Shown here one piece after another: positions 3,305 through 57,208 of a DNA stretch of 64,000 bases. Source of the DNA: an uncultured Alphaproteobacteria bacterium. Lineage in GTDB: Bacteria > Pseudomonadota > Alphaproteobacteria > HIMB59 > GCA-002718135. The position numbers and the translations under genes were made by a program. The stretch is from NCBI GenBank assembly GCA_902595855.1, contig CACJRY010000002.1, positions 56,664-120,663 on the forward strand. Reading direction: 5' to 3'. The notes beneath the pieces were generated by a model that made no database searches, had not been told where the DNA came from, and saw only the letters and a program-made list of their open reading frames with translations. Every line of letters starts with the position of its first letter. Within the stretch, counting starts at the first letter, position 1.

Positions 3305-3766
3305 ATGAGTTTAAGAAACAATATTGATGAGGATTATAAAAAAGCAATAAAAAACAAAGAGCAAGATAGGACCAATACTCTTAGATTAATAAAAAGTGCT
3401 ATAAAAGATAAAGATATTTCATCTAGATCTAATGAAAGCAGAGAAGGCATTAGCGATCAAGAAATACTATCACTTTTGATCAGCTTGATTAAACAGAGAA
3501 AAGATTCGATAGAGCAATTTCAAAAAGCTGGAAGAGATGATTTAATTAAAACTGAGCAAAGTGAAATTGACATAATAAATCAATATTTACCTAAGCAAAA
3601 ATCTGAGGATGAAACCATAGAAATTATTGATGAATTAATTAAAACTCATAATTTAGAAAATTTAAAAGATATGGGCAAGCTTATGGGTTTTGTTAAAAAA
3701 AATTATCCTGGAGAGGTAGATATAGGATTGGTGGGTAAAATTGCAAAATCTAAACTTGGAAATTAA
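3305..3766 (+). CDS. GatB/YqeY domain protein
   Basis: TLRLIKSAIKD...IKQRKDSIEQFQKAGRDDL...EIDIINQYLP...DMGKLMG pattern; usual carA-yqeY-dnaG-rpoD order in alphaproteobacteria. Confidence 0.92.
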   Translation: MSLRNNIDEDYKKAIKNKEQDRTNTLRLIKSAIKDKDISSRSNESREGISDQEILSLLISLIKQRKDSIEQFQKAGRDDLIKTEQSEIDIINQYLPKQKSEDETIEIIDELIKTHNLENLKDMGKLMGFVKKNYPGEVDIGLVGKIAKSKLGN

Positions 3767-5511
3767 TGGCTTTCAATAAGATTGATTTAGAAAATATAAA
3801 ATCAAAAATTCTTATTTCAGAAGAGTTAGATAAAAAAACTAAAGTAATTAAAAAAGGAAAAGATTTTTGGTGTTGCTGTCCATTTCATAATGAAAAAACC
3901 CCATCATGTAAAATTAATGATGAACAGGGATCTTATTATTGTTTTGGCTGTGGAGCAAAAGGAGATATTTTTACAATCTACCAAGAATTATTTAATTATA
4001 CTTTCCTAGATGCAGTAAAGGAGTTAGCAAATAGAGCAGGTATTAAAATAAACTTTGAGCAAACTTCAAATTATAAAGATTATGATAAACATTTAAAAAT
4101 TTTAGAAATTTCAGCTAAGTGGTTTGAGGAAAATTTAAAAGCAGAAAATAATTTATGTATAAAATATTTACAAAATCGCAAATTATCAGATGATACAATT
4201 AAAACTTTTAGACTTGGGTATTCTTTTAATAAAGATCTTTCACTCCATGAGCATTTAAAAAATTTATCATTTGCTGATGAAGAGATTTTAAAAAGCAATG
4301 TTGCTAAACTTGATAAAAATAAAAATATAAAAGATTTTTTTTACAAGAGATTAATTTTCCCTATAACTAATATAAACGGAAAAGTAGTTGGATTTGGAGG
4401 GCGTGTTTTGGATGAGTCCAATCCTAAGTATATAAATTCTCCAGAAAGTCATCATTTTAAAAAGAGAAGCATGCTGTATAATCTTAATTTAGCAAAAAAC
4501 TCTGCAAGAGAGAAAAAAAACTTATTAATTTGTGAAGGATACATGGATGTGATTTCATTATACCAAAACAATATCAAAAGTGTTGTAGCTCCACTTGGTA
4601 CATCTTTTACACAAGAACAATTAGAACTAACCTGGAAATATACTAATAAACCTACTATAATGTTTGACGGCGATGATGCTGGTGTTAGAGCATCCTATAA
4701 AGCAGCACTAATGTCCCTTCCTTTTTTAGTTCCTAATAAATCTCTTCAATTTATAAGATTGCCCAAAAATAATGACCCAGACAGTTTTTTAGAAAAAAAT
4801 AAATTAGCTAATCTTGTTAAGATACTGAAAGCACCAACATCTTTATTAACCTACATTTTTGAACTATCTAGTGATGGAGTATCTCTTAGTGATGCCGACC
4901 AAAAAATTTCATATGACCAATATCTTGATGATATAGTAAGCACGATTAAAGATAAAAAAATTCAATATTTTTATAAAAGCGAATTTAAATCTTTATTTTT
5001 TAAAAAATTAAAAAATTCTAATAAAAATGACATAATAAATGTCATTCCAACAAAAGTTAGTTCCTTACAAAAAAAACAGATATATTCTTTTATTGCTAGT
5101 GCTATTAACCACTCAAAATTAAGAATTAAAATCATTGAGTGTATTTTTGAAAATATTGAATTAGAAGAAATGGAGAGCAAAATTTTAGAGATTCTAAAAA
5201 ATGACACCTTATTTAGTAATGATAATTCAAATGTTTTAAGTTTGTTTAATGAAGAAATCAGACAATTTTTGAAATCTAAGATATTGCATCCAAGTATTTA
5301 TAAACTTTTCCCGTATTCTAGCCATAAATATGATACAGAAGGAGCTTTAGGAGAAATACAAGAATCTTTGAAAAACTTGAATACAAGGCTTTCAAATTTG
5401 AAAAAAATAAATAAAAGCCTAAATACCTTTGAAAAAAATAGTACTTCTTTGAATTGGGATGAACTTCAGAAGATATCTATAGAGTTAGAGGAAACCTATA
5501 AAGATAGTTAA
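3766..5511 (+). CDS. dnaG: DNA primase
   Basis: [10 protein letters not shown]...YYCFGC zinc finger, [19 protein letters not shown] motifs EGYMDV and FDGDDAG. Confidence 0.97.
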
Positions 5512-5512
5512 T

Positions 5513-7720
5513 ATGGCAAAAAAAACAGTTAAAAAAAAGAAGACTACTCCAAAAAAAACCTTAATTAAAAAAAAGGCTGTAAAGAAAGTTGCAGCAAAAA
5601 AAACAGCAAAAAAAACAAAAAAAGCTATTTCAAAAAAAACATCCAAAACTAAAAAAACTATAAAAACAAAAAAGGTATCACAAAAAAAATCAACAAATTT
5701 AAAAAAGAAAACAGCAAAAATTAAAAAAAGTAAACTAAACAAAAACAAAATTAATAAGAAGGTTAAAGATAAAAAATTAAAAAAAGAAAAAAAAGTTATT
5801 TCATTTGATGATCATATAAAATCTATCATAGCTAAATTATTAGATAAACATAAAGTTGATGGAATATATACACAAAAAATAATTGAAAAATCTGTCCCAA
5901 AAAAGTTTAGAACAGAAGAAAATGTTTCTAAAGTTGAAGCATTTTTGAAAGAAAATAATATAACAATTGTTTCTGAAGAAGAAGCAGCCGCTTTGATAAA
6001 ATCAGCTAAAGAAGATCAATCTAAAAATGATGAAGAAAGTGGTGAGGACCAAAAAAAACAAACAGGTAAAACTGATGATCCTGTAAGATTATATTTAAGA
6101 GATATGGGAGCTGTTGAACTACTTAGCAGAGAGGGTGAAATAGCAATAGCCAAAAGAATTGAAGCTGGAAGAGAAAAAATGATTGGAGCAATATGTGAAA
6201 GTCCCATGACAATTCGATCAATAATAAATTGGAAAGACTCCATAAAAGATGGAACAATGTTGTTAAGAGATATTGTTGATTTAGAGGCAACTTATGACAT
6301 GTCTGATATTAATGACAATAAACTGGATGATACTCTAAAATTAATTGAAGAAGCTGGCGCTAGTGAAAAAAAAGATAAAGAAGAAAAGAATTCATCAAAT
6401 GAAACAGAGGGAGAAACTGACTCAGATAATCAAAGTGAAGAAGACGAACTAAATGTTTCATTAGCTGCAATGGAAGAAAAGCTTAAACCAAAAGTTTTAA
6501 GTGATTTTGATTTTATTACAAAGCTTTTCAAAAGATTACAAAAATATAGTTCAGAGCTAATAAGCTCAGACAGAAAAAATGAGACAAGTTTCATTGCTAC
6601 TGAAAAAAAATACAAAAAAATCCAGAAAGAAATGGTAGTTGCCATGAAAGCTGTTCATTTTAATTCATCTACAATTGAAGCTTTAATGGAGTCTCTTTAC
6701 GAACTTAACAAAAAATTACTTGTAAGAGAAGGTCGCATGTTAAGACTCGCTGTTAATGAGGGTGTTAAAAGAGAAAACTTTATTGAAGAATACTTAAATT
6801 TTAATTTTGAAAAAAACTGGATTCAAACTTTACTTAACCTGAAAGATAAACACTGGGAAAAATTTATAAATAAAAATCATTTAGAAATTAATAAATTAAT
6901 TGATGAAATAAAAGAAATTCAAGATGCATCTGAATTGCCTTTAACTGAATTTAGAAGAATAGTATCTACTGTACAACAGGGGGAAAGATCTGCAGGCAGA
7001 GCAAAGAAAGAGATGATTGAATCAAATTTACGTTTAGTTATTTCAATTGCAAAAAAATATACCAATCGTGGCTTACAGTTTTTAGATCTAATTCAGGAAG
7101 GTAACATTGGTTTAATGAAAGCGGTTGATAAATTTGAATACAGAAGAGGTTACAAATTTTCTACTTACGCTACTTGGTGGATAAGACAAGCAATTACAAG
7201 ATCAATAGCAGATCAAGCTAGAACAATAAGAATACCAGTACACATGATAGAGACAATAAATAAAATAGTAAGAACTACTCGACAAATCATGGCAGAAATT
7301 GGCAGAGAACCTACACCAAATGAGCTAGCAGAGAGGCTTCACATGCCTTTAGATAAAGTTAAAAAAGTTTTAAAAATTGCCAAGGAACCAATAAGTTTAG
7401 AGACACCTGTTGGGGATGAGGAAGATAGTTCTTTAGGTGATTTTATAGAAGATAAAAATGCGCTTATCCCAATTGATGCTGCAGTAAAAAGCTCTCTGAG
7501 AGATACAACAACAAGGATTTTATCATCATTAACTCCAAGAGAGGAAAGAGTGTTGAGGATGCGTTTTGGTATTGGTATGAATAGTGATCACACGCTTGAA
7601 GAAGTTGGTCAACAATTTAGCGTTACAAGAGAGAGGATACGTCAAATAGAAGCAAAAGCACTGCGTAAACTAAAACATCCTACCAGAGCAAGAAAACTAA
7701 AAACATTTTTAGACGAATAA
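5513..7720 (+). CDS. rpoD: RNA polymerase primary sigma factor (sigma-70) with a Lys-rich N-terminal extension
   Basis: [70 protein letters not shown], region 4 [27 protein letters not shown]. Confidence 0.99.
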
Positions 7721-8547
7721 TGAAATTGACACTTCTTGGGACAGGTTGTCCAAGTGTTGATCACAAACGATTTGGACCATCAAACCTAATAACAACAAAC
7801 AAAGCTAAAATTTTAGTTGATTGTGGCTCAGGCATAACTCAAAGACTTCATGAATTAAAAGTATCATCAGCAAACATTGATGCGTTATTATTTACTCATC
7901 TGCATTCTGACCATGCAGTTGACTTGTATCAATTGATCATTTCTTCATGGCATTCTTATAGAATAAAACCATGGAAAATTTATGGACCAAAAGGAACAAA
8001 AAAGTTTGTAAATAAAATTATGGATGCTTGGGCTGATGAAAGAAAGTTAAGAATTTCTTATGAAGCAAGAGCAACTGCAAAGGCATTTAAGATTGAGGTA
8101 ATTGAATTTAAATCTTTGGGTAATATCAAGATTAAAGATTTAAAGATTAAATACTTTGAAGTTGATCATAAGCCTGTGAAATATGCTTATGGCTTCGCTT
8201 TTACAAATAAAAATAAAAAACTAACAATAAGTGGTGACACAAAACCGTGTGAAAATTTAATGAAGTATGCACAAAAATCAGATATTCTTCTTCATGAGGT
8301 TTTTATTGAAGGAGAGATTTTAAAGACCAATAAGATGCGTACTAAAAAAACTTTGCATAATGTAAAAAGTTATCACACAACTTCATCGCAGGTAGGTAAA
8401 GTAGCCTTTATTACTCGAAGTAAAAAATTAGTTTTAACTCACTTTGTTCCAACTCAATTCAATAAAAATAGATTAAAAAAGATCATTAAAAAAGATTTTG
8501 GAAAAGATCCAATTATCGGTGAAGATTTAATGAGTATAACTATCTAA
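7720..8547 (+). CDS. Metallo-beta-lactamase-fold hydrolase (RNase Z/BN-arylsulfatase family)
   Basis: LLGTGCP, LVDCGSG, THLHSDH, ISGDT, LLHEV, SYHTT and LVLTHFVP motifs; start overlaps the rpoD stop (TAATG). Confidence 0.85.
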   Translation: MKLTLLGTGCPSVDHKRFGPSNLITTNKAKILVDCGSGITQRLHELKVSSANIDALLFTHLHSDHAVDLYQLIISSWHSYRIKPWKIYGPKGTKKFVNKIMDAWADERKLRISYEARATAKAFKIEVIEFKSLGNIKIKDLKIKYFEVDHKPVKYAYGFAFTNKNKKLTISGDTKPCENLMKYAQKSDILLHEVFIEGEILKTNKMRTKKTLHNVKSYHTTSSQVGKVAFITRSKKLVLTHFVPTQFNKNRLKKIIKKDFGKDPIIGEDLMSITI

Positions 8548-8558
8548 TTTAAATAACT

Positions 8559-9923
8559 TTATTTATATTCTGGTAAAAAATCACTATGCGCTTCAATCAT
8601 TTTATCTGTCATTGAATAGATTTCATCAATAGTAAGATTTGCTGCAGTAAGTGGATCAAGTAATGCTGCATGGTAAATAGTCTCTTTTTTTCTTGTTAAT
8701 GCTGCTTCAGCTGTAAGTATTTGAACATTAATATTAGTTCTCATCAAAGCAGCTAGGTGTTCTGGAAGTTTACCAAATTTTTGTGGAGAATATCCATTCG
8801 AATTTATAATACATGGTACCTCAACACAACAATTTGAAGGAAGGTTATCTATATAACCATTATTCATTACATTGGCATTAATTGTAATCTCATTATTATT
8901 TACTACTCCATCAATAATATAAGATGCATATTCATGACTTCTTTCTAAAGGTTGCTCATAAATTGGAGTCATATCTTCTTCTAGTTTGTTCCATAATTTT
9001 ACATTTATTTCACAACGATCAATATATTCTTCTATAGGAATTTTGTATTTTTCTAACTCATCTTTTCTATTTTGTTTTATGAACCATGGCACATATTCAG
9101 CAAAGTGTTCACTGGACTCTGTAACAAAATATCCAAATCTTCTAAGTATTTCATATCTGACTTTTTCATGAAGTACCTTATTAGAATATTCTGATTTTTT
9201 TCGACTTCTAGAAGACAGGATTTCATCATTAACTATCTTATTTGCTATATTTTTCAGTTTTGGATATAAATCTTCACTTTGATTATCTGTAATTTTTTTT
9301 TCAAATTTTTGATAAAAAGCCATGTGATTAATTCCGACACATAGGTAATCAATATCCTCGATATTTTCTCCTAAATCTTCTGCAAGCATTTCAGCAGTAC
9401 CTTGAACTGAATGGCATAATCCCAATGTTTTAATTTCAGGAAACGTTTTATTAATAGCAATCATATTGGCACACATTGGATTCACATATTGTAACCATAT
9501 TGCTTTGGGGCAAATTTCAATAATGTCTTTTGCAATATCTAGTAAAACAGGTATTGTTCTTAAACCTCTCATAATACCTCCAATACCTAAAGTATCTCCA
9601 ATAGTTTGCTGCAAGCCAAATTTTTTTGGAATTTCGAAATCTATTACAGTTGAAGGTTTGTAGCCACCAACTTGTATAGTTGTTTGAACAAAATCTGCAC
9701 CAACTAATGACTCTCTTCTATTTGTATACGATGTAATTTTAGGATTTGCATTAAGTTTTTGTGAGATAACAGTGAGCAAATCAAGTGATGCTTTTAATCT
9801 TTTTGCATCAATATCTTGAAGAGCAATTTCTATGTTTTTGAAAGAGTCTAATGAAAGAAGATCTGCCACTATATTTTTAGTAAATACAGCACTGCCAGCA
9901 CCAATAATGGTAAGTTTAGTCAT
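8559..9923 (-). CDS. melA: NAD+-dependent family 4 glycoside hydrolase (alpha-galactosidase/alpha-glucosidase)
   Basis: IIGAGSAVFT, QTIGDTLGIGGIMRGLRTIP, LQYVNPM, GLCHSVQGT, GINHMAF and VTESSEHFAEYVPWF match the MelA-type GH4 pattern. Confidence 0.9.
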   Translation of the reverse strand: MTKLTIIGAGSAVFTKNIVADLLSLDSFKNIEIALQDIDAKRLKASLDLLTVISQKLNANPKITSYTNRRESLVGADFVQTTIQVGGYKPSTVIDFEIPKKFGLQQTIGDTLGIGGIMRGLRTIPVLLDIAKDIIEICPKAIWLQYVNPMCANMIAINKTFPEIKTLGLCHSVQGTAEMLAEDLGENIEDIDYLCVGINHMAFYQKFEKKITDNQSEDLYPKLKNIANKIVNDEILSSRSRKKSEYSNKVLHEKVRYEILRRFGYFVTESSEHFAEYVPWFIKQNRKDELEKYKIPIEEYIDRCEINVKLWNKLEEDMTPIYEQPLERSHEYASYIIDGVVNNNEITINANVMNNGYIDNLPSNCCVEVPCIINSNGYSPQKFGKLPEHLAALMRTNINVQILTAEAALTRKKETIYHAALLDPLTAANLTIDEIYSMTDKMIEAHSDFLPEYK

Positions 9924-13334: not shown

Positions 13335-14399
13335 ATGGCTATAATCTCTCTTCGACAACTTTTAGATCACGCAGCTGAAAATAATTATGGCGTCCCAGCT
13401 TTTAACGTAAATAATTTAGAGCAAATTAGAGCAATTATGGAAGGCGCAAAAGAAGTTAATAGTCCTGTAATTGTTCAAGCGTCCGCTGGAGCAAGAAAAT
13501 ATGCAGGCCCAAGATTTATTAAAAGTATGATGGAGGCTGCAGTTGAGGAGTTTCCTGAAATCCCTATTGTAATGCATCAAGATCATGGAGGATCACCTAA
13601 AGATTGTAAAGTATGTATAGATCTTGGTTTTAGTTCAGTCATGATGGATGGATCATTATTAGAAGACCAAAAGACGCCTTCTGACTTTGAATATAACGTT
13701 AAAGTTACAAAAGAAACTGTTGATATGGCTCATGGTTTAGGTGTTTCTGTCGAGGGTGAGTTAGGTTGTTTAGGTTCTCTTGAAACTGGTATGGGTGAAA
13801 AAGAAGATGGTGTTGGAGCTGAAGGTGTTTTATCGCATGAGCAATTATTAACAGATCCGGATGAAGCAGCTGAATTTGTAAAATCTACAAACGTAGATGC
13901 TCTTGCAATTGCAATTGGAACAAGTCATGGTGCGTATAAATTTTCAAGACCTCCATCAGGCGATATATTAGCAATTGAGAGAATAAGAGAAATAAATAGT
14001 AAGTTGCCTAACACACATTTAGTTATGCATGGCTCCTCATCAGTACCTCAGGATTTAATTAAAGTGATCAACGAAAACGGTGGCAAAATTAAAGAAACGT
14101 ATGGTGTTCCAGTATCAGAAATACAAGAAGGCATTATGCATGGTGTTAGAAAAATAAATATTGATACAGATTTAAGGCTCGCTTCTACTGCTGCTATAAG
14201 AAAACATTTTAGCAATGACCCCTCTCAATTTGATCCAAGAAAATATCTCATTGATTCAAAAGAGTGGATGAAAAAAATTGTAACTACACGTTTAACTGAG
14301 TTTGGGTGTGCTGAAAATGCTTCTAAGATTAAACCAATACCACTAGCAAATATTGCTTCTAAATATAGTTCTGGTGAACTGTCACCATCAATAAAATAA
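13335..14399 (+). CDS. fba: Class II fructose-bisphosphate aldolase (CbbA-like subtype)
   Basis: [69 protein letters not shown]. Confidence 0.96.
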
Positions 14400-15439
14400 T
14401 GAATAAAATACGTTGGGGTATTATTGGTCCTGGTGCAATTGCCCACAACTTTGCTGACGCATTAAAGCAGTCCTATTCTGGCGAATTGCTAGCAATTGCC
14501 AGTAGAACCAGTGCCAGATTGGCAGAATTTGGAAATAAATACAATATAAATAAAGAATTTAGATTTAACGATTATGATCAGTTACTTGAAAATGAAAATA
14601 TAGATGCAGTATACATTTCAACACCGCATGTTTTTCATGCTGATTTAACTATTAAAGCTGCTGGTAAAGGAAAGCATATACTTTGTGAAAAACCTGGAGC
14701 TGTGAATTTTAAACAAACTTATGAAGTTATTGAAAAAGTAAAAGAGGCTGGCGTATTTTATAAAGAAGGTTTTATGTACCGATGTCATCCACAAATACCC
14801 GCTTTAATAAATTTGATTAAAAATAAAACCATAGGGAATGTTAATTTAATTACATCTTCGTTTGGGTTTGATATGCAAAAGATTATTCCAGATCATAGGC
14901 TCTTCGATAAGAGTTTGGCAGGAGGGTCTATCCTTGATGTTGGATTATATCCTGTATCTTTATCAAGAATGATAGCGGGGGTTGCTCTAGGAAAAAAATT
15001 TGTTAACCCCATTTCAATTTCTGCAGATGCAAAAATAGGGGAGACTGGTGTTGATGAAGTAGCTTCAGCTAAACTTTTTTTTGAAAATAATATAACCGCA
15101 GTCATATCAACATCAATAATGCAAAATATGGATAATAATGCAGTCATTGAAGGTGAAAATGGTAAAATCATAGTTGATGATCCATGGATGCCAGGAAGAG
15201 ATGGCGGTCCTTATGATACAAAAATTAGAGTTATCACTAATAATGATGAGAGTATCGAGGCGTTTAAAGGGCCAGAGCATCTTTTTTTCTTTGAGGCTGA
15301 GCTTGCTTCTCAAACTATTTTAAAACAACGTACAGAAGTTCCATATCCAGGCATGACATGGGATGACAGCCTTGGTAATATTAAAGTTCTTGATATGTGG
15401 AGAGAAGAAATCGGTTATTATATAGAGGAGGATAATTAA
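14399..15439 (+). CDS. Gfo/Idh/MocA family NAD(P)-dependent oxidoreductase
   Basis: IRWGIIGPGAIA, DAVYISTPHVFH, HILCEKP, FMYRCHPQ, GGSILDVGLYP. Confidence 0.9.
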   Translation: MNKIRWGIIGPGAIAHNFADALKQSYSGELLAIASRTSARLAEFGNKYNINKEFRFNDYDQLLENENIDAVYISTPHVFHADLTIKAAGKGKHILCEKPGAVNFKQTYEVIEKVKEAGVFYKEGFMYRCHPQIPALINLIKNKTIGNVNLITSSFGFDMQKIIPDHRLFDKSLAGGSILDVGLYPVSLSRMIAGVALGKKFVNPISISADAKIGETGVDEVASAKLFFENNITAVISTSIMQNMDNNAVIEGENGKIIVDDPWMPGRDGGPYDTKIRVITNNDESIEAFKGPEHLFFFEAELASQTILKQRTEVPYPGMTWDDSLGNIKVLDMWREEIGYYIEEDN

Positions 15440-26749: not shown

Positions 26750-26753
26750 TAAT

Positions 26754-27090
26754 TGATGATGCGATGATCGCTTGATTATTCAAGAGGAAAGTCCGGGCTC
26801 CACTGGAAAAAAAACCAGGTAACACCTGGCAGGCGTAAGCTTAGGGAAAGTGCAACAGAAAATATACCGCCTTAATGGCAAGGTTGAAATGGTGGGGTAA
26901 GAGCCTACCGCTTTTTTGGTAACAAAAAAGGCATGGCAAACCCTTTTTGGAGCAAGGTCAAATAGGAATGGCAATCAGTTCCAGCTGAGCTGTTCGGGTA
27001 GACTGCTTGAGGTAAATGGCAACATTTATCCTAGATTAATGATCATCATTTTACATAGTAATTTACAGAACCCGGCTTATGCATCATCAT
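26754..27090 (+). ncRNA. rnpB: RNase P RNA (type A)
   Basis: P1 helix TGATGATGC...GCATCATCA; universal GAGGAAAGTCCGGGCTC, AGTGCAACAGAAAA, GGTAAGAG, GGCAAACCC...GAGCAAG and ACAGAACCCGGCTTA motifs. Confidence 0.97.
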
Positions 27091-27138
27091 TAAAAATAAT
27101 AGAACAAAACAGAAACATACTTATATTTTACAAGTTAT

Positions 27139-48407: not shown

Positions 48408-50852
48408 ATGACAAATAACTTACCAAGTTCTTGTAAAGTTGTAGTGATAGGTGGAGGTGTTGCAGGTTGTTCAACTGCATACCATTTGGCAAAATTTGGA
48501 TGGAAAGATACGGTTTTACTTGAAAGAGATGTTCTTACCTCAGGAACAACTTGGCATGCAGCTGGATTGATAGGTCAACTAGGTTCAAGTGCAACAATTA
48601 CAAAACTTAGAAACTATTCATTAAACTTATACAAACAATTAGAAAAAGAGACGGAATTATCAACCGGTTTAAAACAAAATGGATCATTAACAGTTGCAAC
48701 AACATCAGATAGACTTGAAGAACTAAAAAGACAGGTAACATTTGCTCAAAGATTTGAAATTGAAGCAAAAGAAGTCAGCAAAGATGAAATTAAAGAAATT
48801 TATCCTTTAATTAATATTGATGATCTTGTTGGAGGGGTCTTTATACCAAAAGATGGTCAAGCTGACCCTATAGGAGTAGCAAATGTTCTAGCAAAGGCTG
48901 CTAAACAAAATGGAGCAAAAATAATTGAAAAGTGCCCTGTTAAAAAGATTTTAGTAAAAAATAATAAAATTTATGGTGTTGAAACTTCTTTTGGAAAAAT
49001 TGAATGTGAGTACGTTGTTCTAGCAACAGGCATGTGGTCAAGACAAATTGCAGAAGAAATCAATGTTAGCATCCCATTGTACCCAGATGAACATTTTTAT
49101 GTTTTAAGTGAGCCTATAGAAGAAATAGACAGATCTCTCCCAGTACTTAGAGATTATAATAATTGTTTGTATTTAAAAGAGGATGCTGGAAAATTGTTAG
49201 TAGGAGTTTTTGAACCAAATGCAAAACCTGCATTTACAAATAATCATAGAGTGCCTGAAGATTTTTCATTTGGTGAGTTACCTGAAGACTTTGATCACTT
49301 TGAGCCTTATTTAATCAATGCAATGAAACGTATACCTAGCCTTGAAAAATCAGGTATAAGAAAGTTTTTTAATGGCCCAGAATCATTTACACCGGATACT
49401 AATTATTTATTAGGGGAAACTCCTGAAGTTAAGAATTTGTATATGTGTGGAGGTTTTAATAGTATTGGAATTGTAAGTTCAGGAGGTGCAGGTAAAGTCA
49501 CCGCTGAATGGATGATGAATGGTGAAATTTATGAAGATATTTTTTCATTAGATATTTCTAGATTTGAAAAGTTTCACTCAGAAATAAATTTTATTACTGA
49601 GAGAGTAACTGAGTCTCTTGGAAATTTGTATGCAATGCACTGGCCATTCAAACAACATACAACTTCAAGAAACCAAAAACTAATGCCATATCATAATAAT
49701 TTGTTAGAAAGAGGGGCTTGCTTTGGTCAGGCTGCAGCATATGAAAGACCAATGTGGTATGCAACAAATGGTAATGAAGCTAAATATGAATACAGTTACG
49801 GGCATCAAAATTGGTATAAATCTGCTGAATATGAAACTCATAATGCTAGAAAAAATGTAGCTCTTTTTGAACTTTCACCATTCGCAAAGTTCGAAATTTT
49901 AGGTGAAAATGCTCATAACTCTCTTCAAATTCTTTGTGCTAACAATATTAAAAACAAACCTGGTTCAATTACTTACACCCAAATGCTGAATTCAAAGGGA
50001 GGTATCGTTTCTGATTTGACTATTACTTGTGTTGAAAAAAATAAGTTTAGAATTGTTACAGGCTCAAGTTCTCGTACGCACGATAAAAAACATATCTTAA
50101 AATATTTAGATTCATCAGTAAATTTAAAAGATATAACAGATGATTATGCATGTTTTGGTATTTTTGGTCCAAAAAGCAGAGAATTTTTAACTGAAATTTT
50201 TGGTGAGTATTTTTCTAAGGATGATTTTAAATTTAGCACAGGTAAAATTATTAAACTAGATAACATCATTCTTTGGTTTCAGAGAATTTCATATGTTGGT
50301 GAACTTGGTTGGGAAATTTATATTCCAATTGAAAAATCAAAACAGATCTACGAAGCAATAATTAATAAAGAAAAAAAATTTAATCTAGTTCATGCTGGTG
50401 CTCATGCCATGGATATTATGAGAATGGAAAAAGGTTATTTACATTGGGGACATGATATCTCACCAGCAGAAAATCCTTTCGAAGCAGGTTTAGATTTTGC
50501 TATTAAATTAAATAAACAAGAAAATTTTATTGGAAAGAATTTTTTAGTTAAAAATAATAATATAAAAAAAAAGAAATTTATAATGCTTGTCTTAGATAAT
50601 TCTTCTCCAGGCAATCCATTACTATTACATGATGAACCAATTTATTATGAGGGAAATATAGTTGGTGAAACAACATCTGGTAATTATTCATTTGTATATA
50701 ATAAAAATATATCATTCGGGTACATTGATAATGATATTGATTTTAATTATAACAGTTCAGTTTTTCAAATAGAAGTTGCCAAAAAGAAGTATGATGCATA
50801 TGCTATACAAAATTCGCTACACGATCCTTTAAATAATTTTATGAATATTTAA
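48408..50852 (+). CDS. GcvT-family FAD-dependent dehydrogenase (sarcosine/dimethylglycine dehydrogenase-like)
   Basis: VVIGGGVAG, SGTTWHAAG (covalent-FAD His motif), GPESFTPD, C-terminal aminomethyltransferase domain SYVGELGWE and RMEKGY; substrate not determinable. Confidence 0.9.
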   Translation: MTNNLPSSCKVVVIGGGVAGCSTAYHLAKFGWKDTVLLERDVLTSGTTWHAAGLIGQLGSSATITKLRNYSLNLYKQLEKETELSTGLKQNGSLTVATTSDRLEELKRQVTFAQRFEIEAKEVSKDEIKEIYPLINIDDLVGGVFIPKDGQADPIGVANVLAKAAKQNGAKIIEKCPVKKILVKNNKIYGVETSFGKIECEYVVLATGMWSRQIAEEINVSIPLYPDEHFYVLSEPIEEIDRSLPVLRDYNNCLYLKEDAGKLLVGVFEPNAKPAFTNNHRVPEDFSFGELPEDFDHFEPYLINAMKRIPSLEKSGIRKFFNGPESFTPDTNYLLGETPEVKNLYMCGGFNSIGIVSSGGAGKVTAEWMMNGEIYEDIFSLDISRFEKFHSEINFITERVTESLGNLYAMHWPFKQHTTSRNQKLMPYHNNLLERGACFGQAAAYERPMWYATNGNEAKYEYSYGHQNWYKSAEYETHNARKNVALFELSPFAKFEILGENAHNSLQILCANNIKNKPGSITYTQMLNSKGGIVSDLTITCVEKNKFRIVTGSSSRTHDKKHILKYLDSSVNLKDITDDYACFGIFGPKSREFLTEIFGEYFSKDDFKFSTGKIIKLDNIILWFQRISYVGELGWEIYIPIEKSKQIYEAIINKEKKFNLVHAGAHAMDIMRMEKGYLHWGHDISPAENPFEAGLDFAIKLNKQENFIGKNFLVKNNNIKKKKFIMLVLDNSSPGNPLLLHDEPIYYEGNIVGETTSGNYSFVYNKNISFGYIDNDIDFNYNSSVFQIEVAKKKYDAYAIQNSLHDPLNNFMNI

Positions 50853-50871: not shown

Positions 50872-51306
50872 TTATTTTAAATCATTAACGTAATCAGTGC
50901 ATACACCATAACAAAAGGGCATTTCGTCTTTAGAAATTCTATTTTCAATTACTAAAATAGATTTATCAAAAACTTGCTTATTAGGATATGTCCAAATAAA
51001 ACCTCTTGATGTAAGAGTTACATCATCATTTTGGTGAAAAAAACAATGAATATCATTTTGTTTAATTAAAAAGTTCAAAGTTTCAATATTTTTAGCATGA
51101 CACCAGATTCTCTTATTTTTTAACCATTCGATATCATTGATTTTATATTGAGGCAAATCATGACCAAGCCATAAATATTCATCATATAAAAAAAGATCAA
51201 TTTCAATATCAAAGTTTTCATTTAAAGCTTCATTTAGGTAATCAGGATGGTTTTCATATTTTTTTTTGCGACCATTTAAATTACCTCTATGTGAAATAAG
51301 TATCAT
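50872..51306 (-). CDS. Short glycerophosphodiester-phosphodiesterase-like protein
   Basis: ISHRG...EN...DIEID...LGHD...WCHAKN...GVCTDY GDPD-type motifs in only 144 aa. Confidence 0.65.
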   Translation of the reverse strand: MILISHRGNLNGRKKKYENHPDYLNEALNENFDIEIDLFLYDEYLWLGHDLPQYKINDIEWLKNKRIWCHAKNIETLNFLIKQNDIHCFFHQNDDVTLTSRGFIWTYPNKQVFDKSILVIENRISKDEMPFCYGVCTDYVNDLK

Positions 51307-51309
51307 ATT

Positions 51310-52104
51310 CTATTTAATTAAATTTATGTAAATATCTTTATATTTATATTTGGAAAAAATTTTGTTTTCTTTAAATATAGTTTTTTTAAAAAAAATATAT
51401 TTATAGATAATTTTAAATAGTTCTAATGTTTGATTAAAAAGTCTAACATTTGAAATTTGATCAAATTCATACCAATTTATTGCAAAAAATTTTATTTTTA
51501 TTTTTTTGTAACCAGCATATAATATCATATAATAATCAAATGTTAATCTGTCTGGGAAGTTATAATAATTAATTTTTTTAATAAAATTTACTGAATATAA
51601 ATCAAGTCCTGACCCAATATCTGTTATCTTTTTTTTTGTTAAAACTGAAAAAATAATATTGAAAAAAATATTTCCAAAAGTTTTTATTTTTGAATAGCCA
51701 TGAAGTTTAGATGACTTTTCAAATCTTGAACCTCTCACCCATTCAAATTTTTTATATTCTGAATATTTCAAAATATTATTTAAATCATTAATATCAGCTT
51801 GATCATCCCCATGAATAATAATTATGTAATCAAAGTTATTTTGTATAGCATAATCAAATATTACTTTGTGTGTTCCTCCAAGATTAACATTTTCAATGTT
51901 TTGCATAATTTTAGAATTAATTTTAATTTCCTTTAAGTATGTTTTACTGACCTTTAAGGTATTATCTTTACTTATGTTATCTATGATTATAGCTTCATTA
52001 ATCATTTCAATATATTTAAATTTCTTTATTTTTTCTAAAACTCTTTTAATTTGTTTTTCACAATTATATACTGGGATGGCTAATAAAAGTTTATTTTGAT
52101 TCAT
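51310..52104 (-). CDS. Family 2 glycosyltransferase (DPM1/GtrB-like)
   Basis: IPVYNCE, IIDNISKD, HGDDQAD, RGSRF and ITDIGSG resemble polyprenol-phosphate sugar synthases. Confidence 0.85.
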   Translation of the reverse strand: MNQNKLLLAIPVYNCEKQIKRVLEKIKKFKYIEMINEAIIIDNISKDNTLKVSKTYLKEIKINSKIMQNIENVNLGGTHKVIFDYAIQNNFDYIIIIHGDDQADINDLNNILKYSEYKKFEWVRGSRFEKSSKLHGYSKIKTFGNIFFNIIFSVLTKKKITDIGSGLDLYSVNFIKKINYYNFPDRLTFDYYMILYAGYKKIKIKFFAINWYEFDQISNVRLFNQTLELFKIIYKYIFFKKTIFKENKIFSKYKYKDIYINLIK

Positions 52105-52148
52105 TTTTAATTATAAGTAAAAATTGTATAAAGGTATATTTGTAAATC

Positions 52149-53246
52149 ATGTTTAAAGAAAGAGCTAATTTTTTAAAAGGTTACTTCTATCATATTAACT
52201 ATTTTTTTTTCTTTATTTTTATATCTTTTTTTATAATTGAAATACTAGTAATAAAAAATTCATTAAATTCAGAAATTGTATATCATGAGAATTTTGCAAA
52301 AAATTTATTAATTTTACACGACCATGAATTTAGCGAAGACTCTAAAAAAACTAATAGAGATAAAAAATATATGACATCAGCATTAGGTAAAGGCATTGAA
52401 AAAGGCAGCCTTGAAGTAAGAAAATTGAACCGATGGGTAGGTCTTTATATAGATTATAATTTATTTAAATTTGTTTATGATAAATTTAACTCTAAGTTAT
52501 TATTAATTTTTTATTCTCTATACTTTTCTATATTTGTTACGATGACTCTATATTTTGTTAATCAAACGCATATTTTAATTAATAAGAAAAATATCACTCA
52601 ATCTAACCTTGAGTATACTAATTTTTATTTAATAATGATAATTTTTGCATTAATATTTTTTTTGAGCATCTATCAATTTTATTCACCTGAAATAAGTTTT
52701 TCTATCAAAGAAACCTTTTTTATTTCAGCAGGTTTGTTTTTCACTTTAAAAAAAAATAAGTTATTTTTTATTTTAATTATATTGGTTGCGCCTTTAATAA
52801 GGGAAAGTGGTCTGATTATTTCATTATTTTGGTTTATATTTTATAGAAAAGATAAGATTTCATATTTCTTTCCAATTTTATCGCTGATACCTTTTATTGC
52901 TTTTAACTATGATATAATCAATTATTTCTTCAAGTACGGATATTTAATTTCTTTTGAACCTCAGGCCGGTCAAATAACATGGTGGGATAATAAAACAATT
53001 AACTTAAATTTAATAAGAATTATATTCATAAATTATGGTATTTACTTATTTGCTTTAATTATATTAATAAATTTAATAAAAGAGACAAAAAGATTAAAAT
53101 TAATTTTATTAAGTTTCTTTTATTTGATAATATTGTTGATGTTTACAACTACTAGCCACTATTCTTCCAAATTTTTAATAGCTCCTTTTATGACTTTACT
53201 CATAGTGGATGTTTTAAGATCAAAAAATTACTTAAAAAATGATTAA
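52149..53246 (+). CDS. Multi-pass membrane protein, possibly a GT-C-type transferase or polymerase
   Basis: Roughly 9-10 hydrophobic segments, a soluble loop after TM1, an internal IRES motif; sits within the glycan-related cluster. Confidence 0.55.
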   Translation: MFKERANFLKGYFYHINYFFFFIFISFFIIEILVIKNSLNSEIVYHENFAKNLLILHDHEFSEDSKKTNRDKKYMTSALGKGIEKGSLEVRKLNRWVGLYIDYNLFKFVYDKFNSKLLLIFYSLYFSIFVTMTLYFVNQTHILINKKNITQSNLEYTNFYLIMIIFALIFFLSIYQFYSPEISFSIKETFFISAGLFFTLKKNKLFFILIILVAPLIRESGLIISLFWFIFYRKDKISYFFPILSLIPFIAFNYDIINYFFKYGYLISFEPQAGQITWWDNKTINLNLIRIIFINYGIYLFALIILINLIKETKRLKLILLSFFYLIILLMFTTTSHYSSKFLIAPFMTLLIVDVLRSKNYLKND

Positions 53247-54627
53247 AGCAATAATATTTGATTTAGATGGGGTATTAATTGACTCAAAAGAAGTTCATTA
53301 TATAGCGTTAAATCAAGCATTAAAGTTAGTAGATAATAAATATAAAATTTCTATGGAAGATCATTTAAATATCTTTGATGGCTTGCCAACCCTTGCAAAA
53401 ATAAACTACTTAATTGATAAAAGAAATTTCCCAAAATCAAAAAAAAATTTTGTTTATAATGAAAAACAAAAAATTACTAACAAACTATTAGTTAAAGATG
53501 TAAGTGTAGAGGCTGAATTAAAAAAAATTTTAAATAAACTTTCTAAAAAATTTAAATTAGCTTTAGCTACGAATTGTATAAGAAAAACTATGATTCAAGT
53601 TTTAAAAAAAAATGACATCAAGAAATATTTTCAATTTACAATTTGCAATGAAGATGTAAATAATCCAAAACCTCACTCTGAAATTTATTTAAAATGTATA
53701 CTAAATTTAGGTTATAATCCTGATGAAGTTTTAATTCTTGAAGACTCAAATATTGGAAGGACTTCGGCAATTAAATCTGGTGCCAATGTTTTACCAATAG
53801 AAGATTTTAGAAAAGATGTAAATTACAAAAATATAATTAACAAAATATCCTCAATTAACGAAGTTACAAAAAAAATTAAGTGGAAATCTGAAAAGTTAAA
53901 TATTCTAATACCTATGTCTGGAAAAGGATCAAGATTTATGGATAAAGGTTATATATTTCCAAAACCGTTAATTGAAGTAAATAAAAAACCAATGATTGAA
54001 GTTGTAATTGAAAATCTACAAATTGAAGCTAATTTTATTTTTATAGTTCTTAAAGAGCATATTGCGAAATACAAAATTGATTATTTTCTTAAAAGACTTA
54101 ATCCAAATTGTAAAATTGTTGTTTGTGATAACATAACTGAGGGTGCAGCATGCACGTCATTATTAGCTGAAAAATTGATTAATAATAGTAATCCTCTTAT
54201 AATAGCGAATTCAGATCAATATATTGAATGGGACTCTTCTAAAACTATGTATTCAATAGTTTCATCAAAAGTAGATGGGGCAATTTTAACATTTAAGTCT
54301 AATCATCCAAAATGGTCTTATGCATTAACTGATAAAGAAAATAATGTCGTTGAGGTTGCAGAAAAAAAACCTATTTCAGATAATGCAACAGTTGGAATAT
54401 ACTATTGGTCTAAAGGTTCTGATTACGTCAAATATGCAAAAAAAATGATAAAAAAAAATATTAGGGTAAATGGTGAATTTTATATATGTCCAGTTTATAA
54501 CCAAGCAATCATAGATAAGAAAAAAATAATTACTAAGGAAGTAAAAGAAATGTGGGGTATTGGAACTCCTGAAGATTTGGAATATTTTTTAATGAAAAAA
54601 GAACCAAAAATAAATAAAACATCTTAA
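53239..54627 (+). CDS. Fusion of a HAD phosphatase/mutase (N-term) and a sugar-phosphate nucleotidyltransferase (C-term)
   Basis: HAD motifs FDLDGVLID, PKP, ILEDS; nucleotidyltransferase motifs IPMSGKGSRF, PKPLI, NSDQ, NGEFY, GTPEDL. Confidence 0.85.
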   Translation: MIKAIIFDLDGVLIDSKEVHYIALNQALKLVDNKYKISMEDHLNIFDGLPTLAKINYLIDKRNFPKSKKNFVYNEKQKITNKLLVKDVSVEAELKKILNKLSKKFKLALATNCIRKTMIQVLKKNDIKKYFQFTICNEDVNNPKPHSEIYLKCILNLGYNPDEVLILEDSNIGRTSAIKSGANVLPIEDFRKDVNYKNIINKISSINEVTKKIKWKSEKLNILIPMSGKGSRFMDKGYIFPKPLIEVNKKPMIEVVIENLQIEANFIFIVLKEHIAKYKIDYFLKRLNPNCKIVVCDNITEGAACTSLLAEKLINNSNPLIIANSDQYIEWDSSKTMYSIVSSKVDGAILTFKSNHPKWSYALTDKENNVVEVAEKKPISDNATVGIYYWSKGSDYVKYAKKMIKKNIRVNGEFYICPVYNQAIIDKKKIITKEVKEMWGIGTPEDLEYFLMKKEPKINKTS

Positions 54628-54879
54628 GTGGAATTCATTCATCTTTGTATAGATTAATATGTATGAGTTATAATCAATTTAAAATGACTTTAAAATATTT
54701 TTAATTAACACATAATTTTCTCACTGTATTTTTTCACAACATTTTTTGTAAAACTTAAATTTTGATCAGTAATTTTGTAAAATACTAAATTTTAATTATG
54801 AAACGGCATATAAACAGCACTTCTAAAGGGCAATTTTTAAATATTCTTTTTAAAGCTTAAAAAAAACAAGAAGGTACTA

Positions 54880-54899
54880 GGGCGTTCTCTTGTCTGGTG
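54880..54899 (-). repeat. Degenerate copy of the tmRNA 3'-terminal segment (copy C)
   Basis: GGGCGTTCTCTTGTCTGGTG versus GGGCGTTCTGTTGCCCGGTG at 56848-56867: 17/20 identical, same orientation. Confidence 0.7.
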
Positions 54900-55020
54900 T
54901 GCCAACTTTGCTACTTGAGATATGAGGTTACAATCTTGAATAGCGTATCGAGAACTGAGATAAATTAAGTTAAATTTAATCTTAGAAACAAATTACTTGA
55001 TATTTAATAAAATTTTTATT

Positions 55021-55863
55021 TTATTTAGAATTATTTTCTAAATATAACCATGGTGTTTTTGAAATTCTTAGAGATCCACTTAAATATAACTTATCTATGT
55101 GATTAAAAGTTTCTTTATTTTTAATTTCATTTGGTAATTTGTAATTAATTGTTGCTGAATTAAAAATTGTTTCTATTGTATGGCTTGAATTAAAGTCTCT
55201 TTTTATTTTTTGCATTATTTCATCATTATGGACTTCGACCAATAAGTCATTATTGGATAACCATGGATTTTTTTTAATATCTATTATATTTTTTTCATCG
55301 CCTTCTATATCACAAACCAAAAGACTGTTTTTAATATTTTCAGTATATATCTCTAATTTACTAAAATTATCAAAAAAAATTACTTCTGAATTTATATTAT
55401 TGCTAATGATCAATTCTTTTATTTTTCTAAAATGTTTTGTATCAATATCTATTGCATAACCCTTAGAAAAATTACCAAATTTTAATAGCCCTAGAAGATA
55501 ATAACCATTAGCCACACCAAGATTTATTAAATTTTCATATTTTTTTTTTAAAAGTTTATTTTTTAATAAGAAGTGTAGTTCATTTTCAAACATACCTAGT
55601 ATTTGGCTAGGAACAAAATTTTCACTTTCTACTTTTAGTCCTTTAAAAGGTCCTGATAGAACACAATCTTTAAAATTTTGATTTGTGTTAATCAATAATT
55701 TTTTTTTTATTATTTTTAATAGAACAAGATTTGATAAATCATAAAACCAACTATAATCATATTTTTTTAAACCGATAAAACTAAGTATTTTTTGTTTTAT
55801 TAGATAATAAAACATTACCAAGAAAGTATATTTCATTATAATTCTAGATTTACTACCGAACAT
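55021..55863 (-). CDS. Putative SAM-dependent methyltransferase (FkbM-like)
   Basis: GPFKGL, GMFENEL, INLGVANGYY (motif I-like), YAIDID, VCDIEGDE, LLVEVH. Confidence 0.65.
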   Translation of the reverse strand: MFGSKSRIIMKYTFLVMFYYLIKQKILSFIGLKKYDYSWFYDLSNLVLLKIIKKKLLINTNQNFKDCVLSGPFKGLKVESENFVPSQILGMFENELHFLLKNKLLKKKYENLINLGVANGYYLLGLLKFGNFSKGYAIDIDTKHFRKIKELIISNNINSEVIFFDNFSKLEIYTENIKNSLLVCDIEGDEKNIIDIKKNPWLSNNDLLVEVHNDEIMQKIKRDFNSSHTIETIFNSATINYKLPNEIKNKETFNHIDKLYLSGSLRISKTPWLYLENNSK

Positions 55864-55958
55864 TTTTAAATTAAATCAATCATTTAAATTTGACTAATTC
55901 TTATAGATTATTTAGTAAATAAAAAGTTTATTTAAAAAATTTATTGTATGGTTTAATT

Positions 55959-56315
55959 ATGTTTTTAAAAATTATAATAAAAATCTCAGTCTTTTTATTT
56001 TTTATTAATCCTGCTGTAGCTTTTCATGATGTAGAAGTCTCTAATGAGGATATAGCGACTCTAGGAGGATTATGGGTTCAAATATTTGTTTATGAAGAAA
56101 ACTGTATAGATAATCAATATTACACTTTAATAAAAGAAAGATTACAAGAAAGTCCTAGATTTGAAAGATACTCATCAGAGTTAGATCATTTAACTGAAAG
56201 CCAAGAGTTGGCTTTGGAAAATGGTGCAGAAGGCGCGGCTTTAGTAATTGAATCAGGTGGAACTAGCTGTGATATTATTGCTGATGTCATTTGGGAATGG
56301 TTTGGTGAAAATTAG
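55959..56315 (+). CDS. Hypothetical secreted acidic protein
   Basis: Open frame with a signal-peptide-like N-terminus ending in AVA; two Cys. Start placed at ATG 55959 (track gives TTG at 55944). Confidence 0.65.
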   Translation: MFLKIIIKISVFLFFINPAVAFHDVEVSNEDIATLGGLWVQIFVYEENCIDNQYYTLIKERLQESPRFERYSSELDHLTESQELALENGAEGAALVIESGGTSCDIIADVIWEWFGEN

Positions 56316-56404
56316 AAAATCTTAATTTAATTAAGCATATTACGCACAAATTTAGAGCAAATTAAAAAAAACAAAAGAAATGAATCAAAATTTAACAGTT
56401 TAGT

Positions 56405-56426
56405 GGGGCGTTGTGTTGCCTTGTGC
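56405..56426 (-). repeat. Degenerate copy of the tmRNA 3'-terminal segment (copy B)
   Basis: GGGGCGTTGTGTTGCCTTGTGC versus GGGGCGTTCTGTTGCCCGGTGC at 56847-56868: 19/22 identical, same orientation. Confidence 0.8.
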
Positions 56427-56434
56427 TTTGACAT

Positions 56435-56839
56435 TTATTTTAGACTATCTATGTAAGATAAAAAATTATTAATTTTTACAAACTCACAATTTCCTATTGG
56501 AAACATTTCTCTAGTTGTAAATCCTCCCCCAGTCATCGTCCAGACATCAACTCTTAAAGAATTAAGTTCAATAGAATAAACTCTATCTCTAATGTTATTT
56601 TCACTTGAGAATATATTAATATAGGAGAGTTCTAAATCTACATCATAATAATATTCATTAATTGAAGTTATTTTGTTAAGATCTGTATTAATCACTTTTA
56701 CTTTATTAGATGAAATAAATTCAAATCCCGATAGTAAAGCAGGGCACAATAATTGATTATTTGAAAAGTCTTTTTTGGTAAAAGCTATAGACGGAAGTAA
56801 GCAAAAAAATAAAAATACTAAAATAAATAATTTTTTCAT
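56435..56839 (-). CDS. Hypothetical secreted protein
   Basis: MKKLFILVFLFFCLLPSIAF signal peptide; small mature domain with two Cys; starts directly after the tmRNA 3' end. Confidence 0.7.
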   Translation of the reverse strand: MKKLFILVFLFFCLLPSIAFTKKDFSNNQLLCPALLSGFEFISSNKVKVINTDLNKITSINEYYYDVDLELSYINIFSSENNIRDRVYSIELNSLRVDVWTMTGGGFTTREMFPIGNCEFVKINNFLSYIDSLK

Positions 56840-56842
56840 ATT

Positions 56843-57100
56843 AAAAGGGGCGTTCTGTTGCCCGGTGCCCCGAACCGCGCTAACCTAGAACCTAGGCAGC
56901 GATAGCTAATCTATTATCGTTAGCGTTTATAAAAATAGCCCGATAACGGCGGTACAATGCCGAGTAAAGTCTTTATCTTTTAGTCAACGTCTAACCTATT
57001 TCGCCCCCATAATATTATGGTGGAGGCGCCGGGTACCGCCCCCGGGTCCGCACAACCTATTACATAAAGCATTTATCACCATAGTTGATAAATCAACACT
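56843..57100 (-). ncRNA. ssrA: Two-piece (circularly permuted) tmRNA encoding the tag ANDNRLAIAA
   Basis: Minus strand: acceptor piece ending GACCCGGGGGCGGTACCCGGCGCCTCCACCA (CCA ends at 57018), 9-nt intervening segment TAATATTAT, coding piece starting GGGGGCGAAATAGG at 57008. Tag ORF GCT AAC GAT AAT AGA TTA GCT ATC GCT GCC TAG at 56924-56892. The 5' boundary is approximate. Confidence 0.95.
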
Positions 57101-57208
57101 TTCTTTATAAACCAAAGTGGCTAATCAAGATAGTTTTGAATTTAAAGACAGCATTTTCGCCAAAAATTAGTTGTTATCATTTGTTTTTAGTGAAATAAGA
57201 TTTTTCAA

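Follow-up and report, generated by a model that had tools for sequence, protein, structure and literature searches.

Co-oriented copies of the ssrA 3' end delimit small gene cassettes in a streamlined alphaproteobacterial order and probably record successive site-specific integrations

The window analyzed here, a stretch of 64,000 nucleotides, comes from an AT-rich (ca. 29% GC), streamlined alphaproteobacterium of the HIMB59 order whose genome assembly is 84% complete. It seems to fall in the HIMB59/AEGEAN-169 group, which is related to SAR11. On its minus strand, at 56844–57136, lies ssrA, the permuted (two-piece) alpha-type transfer-messenger RNA (tmRNA) gene, which was identified with Rfam models RF01849 (229 bits, full model, 1–355) and RF04321 (151 bits) and with ARAGORN, which read the tag peptide as ANDNRLAIAA. 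On one side the gene is followed by folA and then thyA, and on the other lies an island for which ssrA is the proposed integration target. The terminal 22 nt of ssrA, taken in plus-strand letters (core A, 56847–56868, the gene-side junction), form a core conserved across the order, and a mismatch scan located two displaced copies of it on the same strand: core B at 56405–56426 (19 of 22 positions identical, 3 mismatches) and core C at 54879–54900 (17 of 22 identical, 5 mismatches; 17 of 20 if counted from 54880). All three are co-oriented within less than 2 kb downstream of ssrA and delimit units of 442 and 1526 bp, core to core; an island that contains direct, co-oriented copies of its target gene's 3' end fits the additive type. 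Both displaced copies are intergenic, core B in the gap 56316–56434 and core C in the gap 54628–55020, and six of their eight differences from the gene copy are GC-to-AT by hand count. In these respects the preliminary description of this DNA, made from its letters alone, was borne out.

The copies are confined to this locus. A search of both strands of the whole 1,470,819-bp assembly with the 22-mer returned exactly these three matches at up to five mismatches; at up to six mismatches there were two more, unrelated and on other contigs, one of them in 23S rRNA. Scanning the genome with 12-nt parts of the core gave no extra copy near ssrA and other near matches only in 23S rRNA, and 100 dinucleotide shuffles of the window gave no match to the 22-mer at up to three mismatches. 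It is extremely improbable that integration has no part in these copies and that they are instead members of a generic family of repeats or terminators, or chance matches. Such a family could be imagined from the setting of the core in ssrA, within a GGGGC...GCCCC inverted repeat followed by T residues that could act as a terminator. The displaced copies lack the 5' half of this hairpin, and the scattered genome-wide matches that had been named beforehand as the sign of a generic repeat did not appear.

The same arrangement was found in related genomes, the collection compared holding 187 species genomes of the order. A 19-nt version of the core was matched with up to two mismatches in 146 of the 187, of which 49 have two to four copies (hand count of the table), and the reversed 19-nt pattern, used as a control, gave no match in any of the 187, which also speaks against chance. 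Copies on one contig were always on the same strand among the matches listed (65 are not listed). Among 18 ssrA loci of relatives, nine have one or two extra co-oriented copies 244–4879 bp downstream of ssrA, eight have none and one has an inverted copy. Within the genus, a conserved frame consists of a cytochrome b561-like gene, a 121-aa rhodanese-like gene, ssrA, folA and thyA. An empty site exists in locus L042, where the rhodanese-like gene ends 23 bp from ssrA, and the outermost core abuts the rhodanese-like gene in L032, L034, L037 and L039 and lies ca. 150 bp from it in L068, which is about the place expected of the original gene end once displaced. What the repeats enclose differs among relatives, gene content changing at the repeats as had been anticipated, and together with the empty site this is the pattern of an additive island. 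Core-to-core cassettes numbered 49 in 36 loci (170–9586 bp, median 1294 bp), an undercount, one more degenerate core with seven mismatches having surfaced by alignment. The window's units of about 0.44 and 1.5 kb, first regarded as unusually small, are thus typical of the family. Large open reading frames (ORFs) in the relatives' cassettes were considered as candidate integrases and turned out to be trypsin-like proteases, a permease, an autotransporter, a sulfatase and others, or had no family match.

Some loci show further peculiarities. In L043 (ca. 14214–14630) a displaced core is inverted with respect to ssrA together with the rhodanese-like gene, which looks like a local inversion in the island. 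A conserved gene of 173–182 aa stands between ssrA and the rest of the island in L053 (ca. 8106–8909) and also in L036, L037, L038, L040, L043, L069 and L070; a partial core of 12 nt is present beyond it in L053, so that the gene may be an old, fixed cassette and a second entry point. A second, divergent tmRNA gene, 70% identical to that of the window, is present on a short contig of genome G062 (contig C33; L060, 481–915). It has its own extra core copy 177 bp downstream, showing the same habit, and may derive from a contaminant or a second organism.

The extra copies are very probably displaced attachment-site cores, produced by successive site-specific integrations into the ssrA 3' end. A small circular element would bring an attachment site (attP) in which a right arm and a left arm flank a 22-bp core identical to the ssrA end. 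A tyrosine integrase would recombine this attP with the ssrA gene end, the element's core would rebuild ssrA, and the old core would be displaced outward, repeated rounds leading to the order neighbour, core, cassette n, core and so on down to cassette 1 and the core within ssrA. As the preliminary description had proposed, the copies behave as stacked integration junctions, the outer one being the more decayed: here core C has five mismatches and core B three. Of the relatives' arrays, 12 have more mismatches in the outermost displaced core than in the innermost, none has fewer and two have the same number. Core mismatches correlate with distance from ssrA (Spearman 0.38, p 0.008), in a test in which three loci of a second genus were scored against the core of the first and two loci had no gene copy. 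Serial site-specific accretion of this sort at ssrA is of a known kind, the additive island at a tRNA or tmRNA gene.

Alignments revealed that many cassettes with unrelated cargo share conserved ends. On the left side, GTGAA(C) comes after the core and leads into an arm of ca. 190 bp (class A) or ca. 105 bp (class B), and on the right side an arm of ca. 75–90 bp precedes the right core. Both arms contain short direct repeats at 11-bp spacing, class A left arms having one repeat near the core and two in tandem further out, and right arms having two. Repeat types comprise ACGCGT, ACGCAC, ACGGCAC, AGTCGCC, TGTGCAC, TACGACGA, CGGCGA, TGCGACTA, GTGTGACTA and GTGTGAAT, and a cassette whose arms are both recognizable usually has a single type at its left and right ends. 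This was assessed by a blind k-mer test on cassettes of at least 400 bp (n = 44), in which the two ends of the same cassette had a GC-rich 7-mer in common in 19 of 44 cases, compared with 6.7% of the 1892 cross pairs; in 5000 permutations the count averaged 3.3 and never exceeded 10. Cassettes without matched ends included some long, composite-looking ones (L031_c1, L054_c1), and both of the window's were also among them. Most cassettes in the order measure 0.2–2 kb, hold one to three cargo genes and encode no integrase, and many keep both arms. Read from these alignments, the layout is that of a lambda-type attP split by integration, and the arm repeats are putative integrase arm sites, which would be of the kind recognized by integrase arm-binding domains. 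In relatives the core has repeated arm-type sites on both sides, and in the window only the right arm at copy B is clear.

The arms also bear on the terminator alternative, as repeats of the ACGCGT type are flagged as terminator-like hairpins. Only the ACGCGT and TGTGCACA types are palindromic and able to form hairpins, the other types, which are the majority, being non-palindromic. In L068, tandem ACGCGT arm repeats at 3612–3628, 5460–5476 and 6559–6575 were flagged as such hairpins on the minus strand, three having been found against a shuffle mean of 0.8. A separate observation concerns class A cassettes in L039, L044, L068 and L069, in five of which the cargo start codon falls exactly 216 bp after the core start (213 bp in L034_c1), just past a TG-N-TA-type motif, as if the left arm brought its own promoter and leaders were very short; a consensus promoter scan gave no more sites than in shuffles, leaving a left-arm promoter unsupported.

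Within the window, cassette 1 (56427–56846, minus strand) is bounded by cores A and B. Its ORF at 56435–56839, for a 134-aa protein that is hydrophobic at the N-terminus and matches no family, fills the inter-core space with 8 bp to spare at each end, leaving no room for arms. Along its full length, cassette 1 matches the ssrA-proximal cassette of L056 (L056_c1) at 94% identity, for a folA–thyA flank identity of 90%, and it matches part of L032_c1 at 90%, for a flank identity of 79%. Immediately outward of core B, a right (P') arm at 56335–56404, recognized by alignment and by nhmmer with a profile built from relatives only, shows one ACGCAC motif clearly and a second in part, with the conserved spacer after them. 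Arm and core together (56335–56426) matched with an E-value of 2.1e-14, and the arm without the core with 1.9e-6, the only significant match of that profile in the genome; the arm-plus-core profile matched at only three places in the genome, namely this one, the gene copy (core alone) and 54793–54899.

This arm belongs to a truncated cassette (55919–56334, plus strand), recognized by homology to L037, with an ORF at 55944–56315 that encodes a 123-aa protein with a signal-like N-terminus. Positions 1041–1493 of the window's second unit (WIN_c2) match 180–641 of L037_c1 at 89%, and 1060–1526 match 1043–1510 of L055_c1 at 90%, for folA–thyA flank identities of 73–76%. The homology with L037_c1, where the cassette is complete, begins at about position 180, in the left arm, so that the first ca. 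180 bp of the cassette (core and most of the left arm) are gone in the window. Next to it, a segment at 54901–55918 (minus strand), delimited from its ORF (55021–55863, 280 aa) and a family scan, occupies the remainder of the unit, and the flank to the right of core C matches no known left-arm family. A weak hint (TIGR04543, E-value 0.0045, far below the family cut-off) is what connects the 280-aa protein to methyltransferases. Judging by these alignments, the 1526-bp unit is a deletion fusion in which the 280-aa gene segment stands in place of the missing core and left arm, and not, as first described for 55021–56315, a single captured unit.

Beyond core C, a probable decayed right (P') arm of a third unit was located at 54793–54878 by nhmmer and by pairwise comparison with shuffles. 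It has ACGGCA and ACAGCAC motifs 11 bp apart; the arm-plus-core profile matched here with an E-value of 3.1e-4 (profile positions 6–111), and the flank aligned to the ACGGCAC-type arm of L057_c2 with a score of 39, compared with a mean of 20.8 (standard deviation 3.5, maximum 34) for 300 shuffles. The probable third unit (50872–54627), delimited from ORFs, a family scan and locus comparison, holds four glycan genes, which encode proteins of 144 aa, 264 aa (a GT2 glycosyltransferase), 365 aa and 462 aa, the last a HAD phosphatase fused to a sugar-1-phosphate nucleotidyltransferase. Because the left flank of core C resembles the right arm of a further unit, these genes probably belong to the array, a correction to the initial description, which had placed the glycan cluster beyond core C; on the far side no left boundary survives. 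All four genes are singletons among 19 compared loci. The 462-aa protein, present in only two of 104 other genomes of the genus (G023 and G002), was considered as a guide to the limits of the unit and was of no help, neither of these carriers having the gene beside ssrA: in G023 it is on a different contig from ssrA, and in G002 its contig also contains an ssrA fragment, ca. 80 kb away. The window also lacks the ancestral rhodanese-like neighbour, and we infer that this gene and the left end of the glycan unit were removed by deletion. The array in the window is old and decayed, one example of an active system that extends across the order.

The enzyme was sought with Pfam family PF00589. The window contains no tyrosine recombinase, as had been noticed at the outset, and the only match in the assembly is on contig C6 (L051, 994–2130), where the genome's single tyrosine recombinase, 378 aa long, is weakly Xer-like and scores far below the cut-offs for Xer and for integron integrases. 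Matches were present in 162 of the 187 genomes, a single one in most genomes of this genus, and the genus recombinase (355–378 aa where seen) occurs in most of these, array or no array. It was considered as the enzyme acting in trans and set aside, being present regardless of arrays and resembling Xer only weakly. The genus may have a single-recombinase system of chromosome-dimer resolution, and its sister genus mostly has two strong matches, of 329 and 286 aa where listed.

A cognate tyrosine integrase adjacent to ssrA was found in two of the 187 genomes and in three metagenome contigs. In G065, an intact 340-aa PF00589 integrase starts 44 bp past the ssrA end, with tandem CTTCGGC repeats in between. 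In G092, a frameshifted homologue, 50–62% identical, stands beside a 12-nt partial core in an element of 3.4 kb that has ACGGCAC repeats on both arms. The metagenome contigs yielded four relatives of the integrase (82–91% identity), three of them immediately after ssrA and the fourth next to a degenerate core. Among the matches listed (E-value up to 1e-30), homologues more than 50% identical are confined to these two of the 187 genomes, and the integrases of 31–39% identity that were inspected are at tRNA genes or have no tRNA nearby. Four of the latter are next to tRNA-Arg, tRNA-Ser, tRNA-Leu and tRNA-Gly (L073, L074, L076 and L077), and two of these four have ORFs of 701 and 730 aa nearby and may be satellite- or phage-like elements. 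The neighbours of the ssrA integrases are ordinary cargo (ArsR/ArsP, EamA); past the integrase of L081 come a possible LysR regulator, cytochrome b561 and a glutamate-synthase-like protein, and no second core marks the end of the element. No replication, packaging or capsid gene was found among 20 cargo ORFs scanned with Pfam, on contigs that often end there. Because cognate integrases exist, though rare, supply of the enzyme in trans is plausible from these comparisons.

Movement of cassettes between species was assessed by comparing their identity with that of neighbouring core genes. One cassette, with an ORF of 194–195 aa, is present in L054, L066 and L067 (L054_c3, L066_c2 and L067_c2) at 91–97% identity, in slots 3, 2 and 2 and with unrelated neighbours, and the folA–thyA identity among these genomes is 74–81%. 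Similarly, the window's cassettes are 89–94% identical to those of relatives for a flank identity of 73–90%. Such an excess calls for recent transfer, either of the integrase-less form or of a parent element from which the integrase was cleanly lost on several occasions. The ssrA 3' end may serve order-wide as a standing capture platform for many diversified, integrase-less mini-cassettes of 0.2–2 kb, each a complete attP around one to three cargo genes, that would be moved between species as units by the integrases of rare helper elements; this proposal is put forward tentatively. The ten or more arm-repeat types would then imply many integrase specificities acting on one core.

Alternatively, the cassettes would be dead remnants of integrase-bearing arrivals whose integrase was deleted under streamlining and which no longer move, the locus being a graveyard rather than a platform. 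Deletion scars in the window (the fusion in cassette 2 and the loss of the outer boundary and of the ancestral neighbour) are consistent with this, as are the frameshifted integrase of G092, which would be decay caught midway, and the ordinary, cassette-like cargo of the integrase-bearing elements, including the possible regulator of L081. Many integrase-less cassettes, however, have both arms intact, matched repeats and perfect cores, and the presence of the same cassette in different slots and among different neighbours, far more alike than the core genes, speaks against immobility. We regard a graveyard as somewhat doubtful.

A further account accepts that the array was founded by site-specific integration and attributes its present turnover to homologous recombination at cores and arms, by which incoming DNA would be exchanged with no integrase needed. 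Each cassette is surrounded by 100–300 bp of conserved core and arm sequence that could act as anchors, L054_c3 and L067_c2 have the same cargo and different left-arm types, which suggests exchange inside cassettes, and the interval from the cytochrome b561-like to the rhodanese-like gene, which lies outside the repeats, is variable in gene content too. The literature on SAR11 and HIMB59, in the portions available, favours homologous recombination and reports few mobile elements (PMC10734472; 10.64898/2026.10.07.757358). What this account leaves unexplained is the covariation of arm repeats between the two ends of a cassette, the outward decay of the cores and the location of cognate integrases exactly at the core, and it appears unlikely.

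Several results weigh against serial integration or limit the evidence for it. The 20 further loci in which arrays reach up to six cores were picked for having several copies, and their array sizes give no estimate of prevalence. Some of the mismatches in displaced cores may stem from variation among incoming attP sites and not from age. In the window, an arm of independent significance is present only at copy B: the arm at copy C is marginal and was missed by the arm-only profile, and on the right side of either copy the left-arm profile detected nothing significant. Neither core scans nor arm profiles located a left boundary of the glycan unit. A tblastn search with the ssrA-type integrase found no homologue in this genome, 84% complete. 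Metagenome runs, of which the 20 of 24 rows listed cover small shares of the stretch (maximum 0.16), gave for four runs contigs on the locus that are short pieces, with joints having 21–29 letters on the shorter side, some within the repeated core, and that are too short to show empty sites or circles; neither an excised nor a free form appeared. Finally, the preliminary description had envisaged a phage or satellite with this core in an attP near an integrase. Scanning IMG/VR with the 19-nt core returned no stretch and searching it with the ssrA integrase returned no relative, and since both searches were empty no such phage or satellite was found in that database.

Other features of the window were recorded. 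Between the conserved frame and the island, at 48408–50852, lies a gene for an 814-aa FAD oxidoreductase fused to an aminomethyltransferase domain (dimethylglycine-oxidase-like), which is common only to the two closest relatives and indicates that variation reaches beyond the att-bounded part. The class A RNase P RNA is at 26752–27095 (304 bits).

The closest parallels are islands of other aquatic bacteria. In Ca. Methylopumilus, the parts of the source consulted describe an additive island at tRNA-Lys with recurring copies of the last ca. 20 nt of the tRNA gene (PMC10872708), and in SAR11 the gMED islands are described as containing partial tRNA repeats, one island being bounded by a tmRNA gene (PMC11796062). 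Common to these and to the ssrA arrays are direct 3'-end repeats, small variable cassettes between them, streamlined aquatic hosts and few or no mobility genes; the ssrA arrays differ in targeting the 3' end of a two-piece tmRNA and in belonging to a different order. Conserved attP-type arms, matched arm repeats and a cognate integrase are not described for the Methylopumilus and SAR11 islands in the texts compared. Tycheposons of Prochlorococcus, according to the part of the report consulted, integrate at fixed tRNA genes and at the tmRNA gene, new arrivals pushing older ones outward, and partial tRNAs and broken integrases are scattered through their islands (10.1101/2020.12.28.424599). As far as that account goes, they are defined by a deep-branching tyrosine recombinase together with replication or packaging genes, whereas the ssrA cassettes have none of these and the integrase-bearing ssrA elements, as far as contigs reach, have only cargo beside the integrase. 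In the Islander sense, as outlined in the text consulted, a target gene split by a tyrosine integrase is made whole again by the island, at whose far end a displaced piece of the gene is left (PMC4383910). Here ssrA, spanning the whole RF01849 model, is a target gene regenerated intact, and neither the window nor the assembly has a tyrosine integrase inside the island. Islander-type islands, as described there, have their own integrase and are usually many kb long, in contrast to the ssrA units, mostly without integrase and of 0.2–2 kb.

Cis-mobilisable elements, in the literature on integrative and conjugative elements (ICEs) of Streptococcus thermophilus, are reportedly att-flanked, integrase-less ICE derivatives that accrete in tandem with a helper. 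If so, they share with the ssrA cassettes the lack of an integrase, att boundaries, tandem arrangement at a gene 3' end and possible dependence on a helper, and differ in being few and large per genome, as compared with arrays of up to five or more mini-cassettes throughout an order. The preliminary description had called the locus integron-like. Integrons and ssrA arrays do share small, mostly single-gene cassettes on one platform, each with its own recombination site. The ssrA arrays, however, have neither IntI nor attI, the sole PF00589 match in the assembly being on another contig rather than beside the array; their boundaries are direct copies of the ssrA end with lambda-type, direct-repeat arms instead of folded attC hairpins, although no dedicated attC search was made; and their cassette genes lie on either strand. 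The analogy fails on membership and captures the array-of-cassettes behaviour. In the literature consulted, whose supplements may hold more, no description was found of integrase-less mini-cassettes with full attP arms and matched repeats, of this ssrA hotspot in this order or of the cognate integrase, and the word tmRNA does not occur in the HIMB59 paper PMC10734472.

In bacteria of the SAR11 type, small variable cassettes are said to be everywhere and canonical mobility genes almost absent, and how variants become established is presented as an open question in the parts of the reports consulted (PMC11796062; 10.64898/2026.10.07.757358). The ssrA locus and its relatives offer a concrete, testable mechanism for one such hotspot, composed of a 22-bp target, attP arms, a candidate integrase family and cassettes far more alike across species than the neighbouring core genes. 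In addition, the ssrA-end core provides a simple marker for cassette boundaries in fragmented single-cell and metagenome assemblies. Mobilisation in trans, which is plausible, is the most interesting point of the system, and if the ssrA end does act as a capture platform, it would provide site-specific exchange of single genes to streamlined bacterioplankton said to lack canonical mobile elements.

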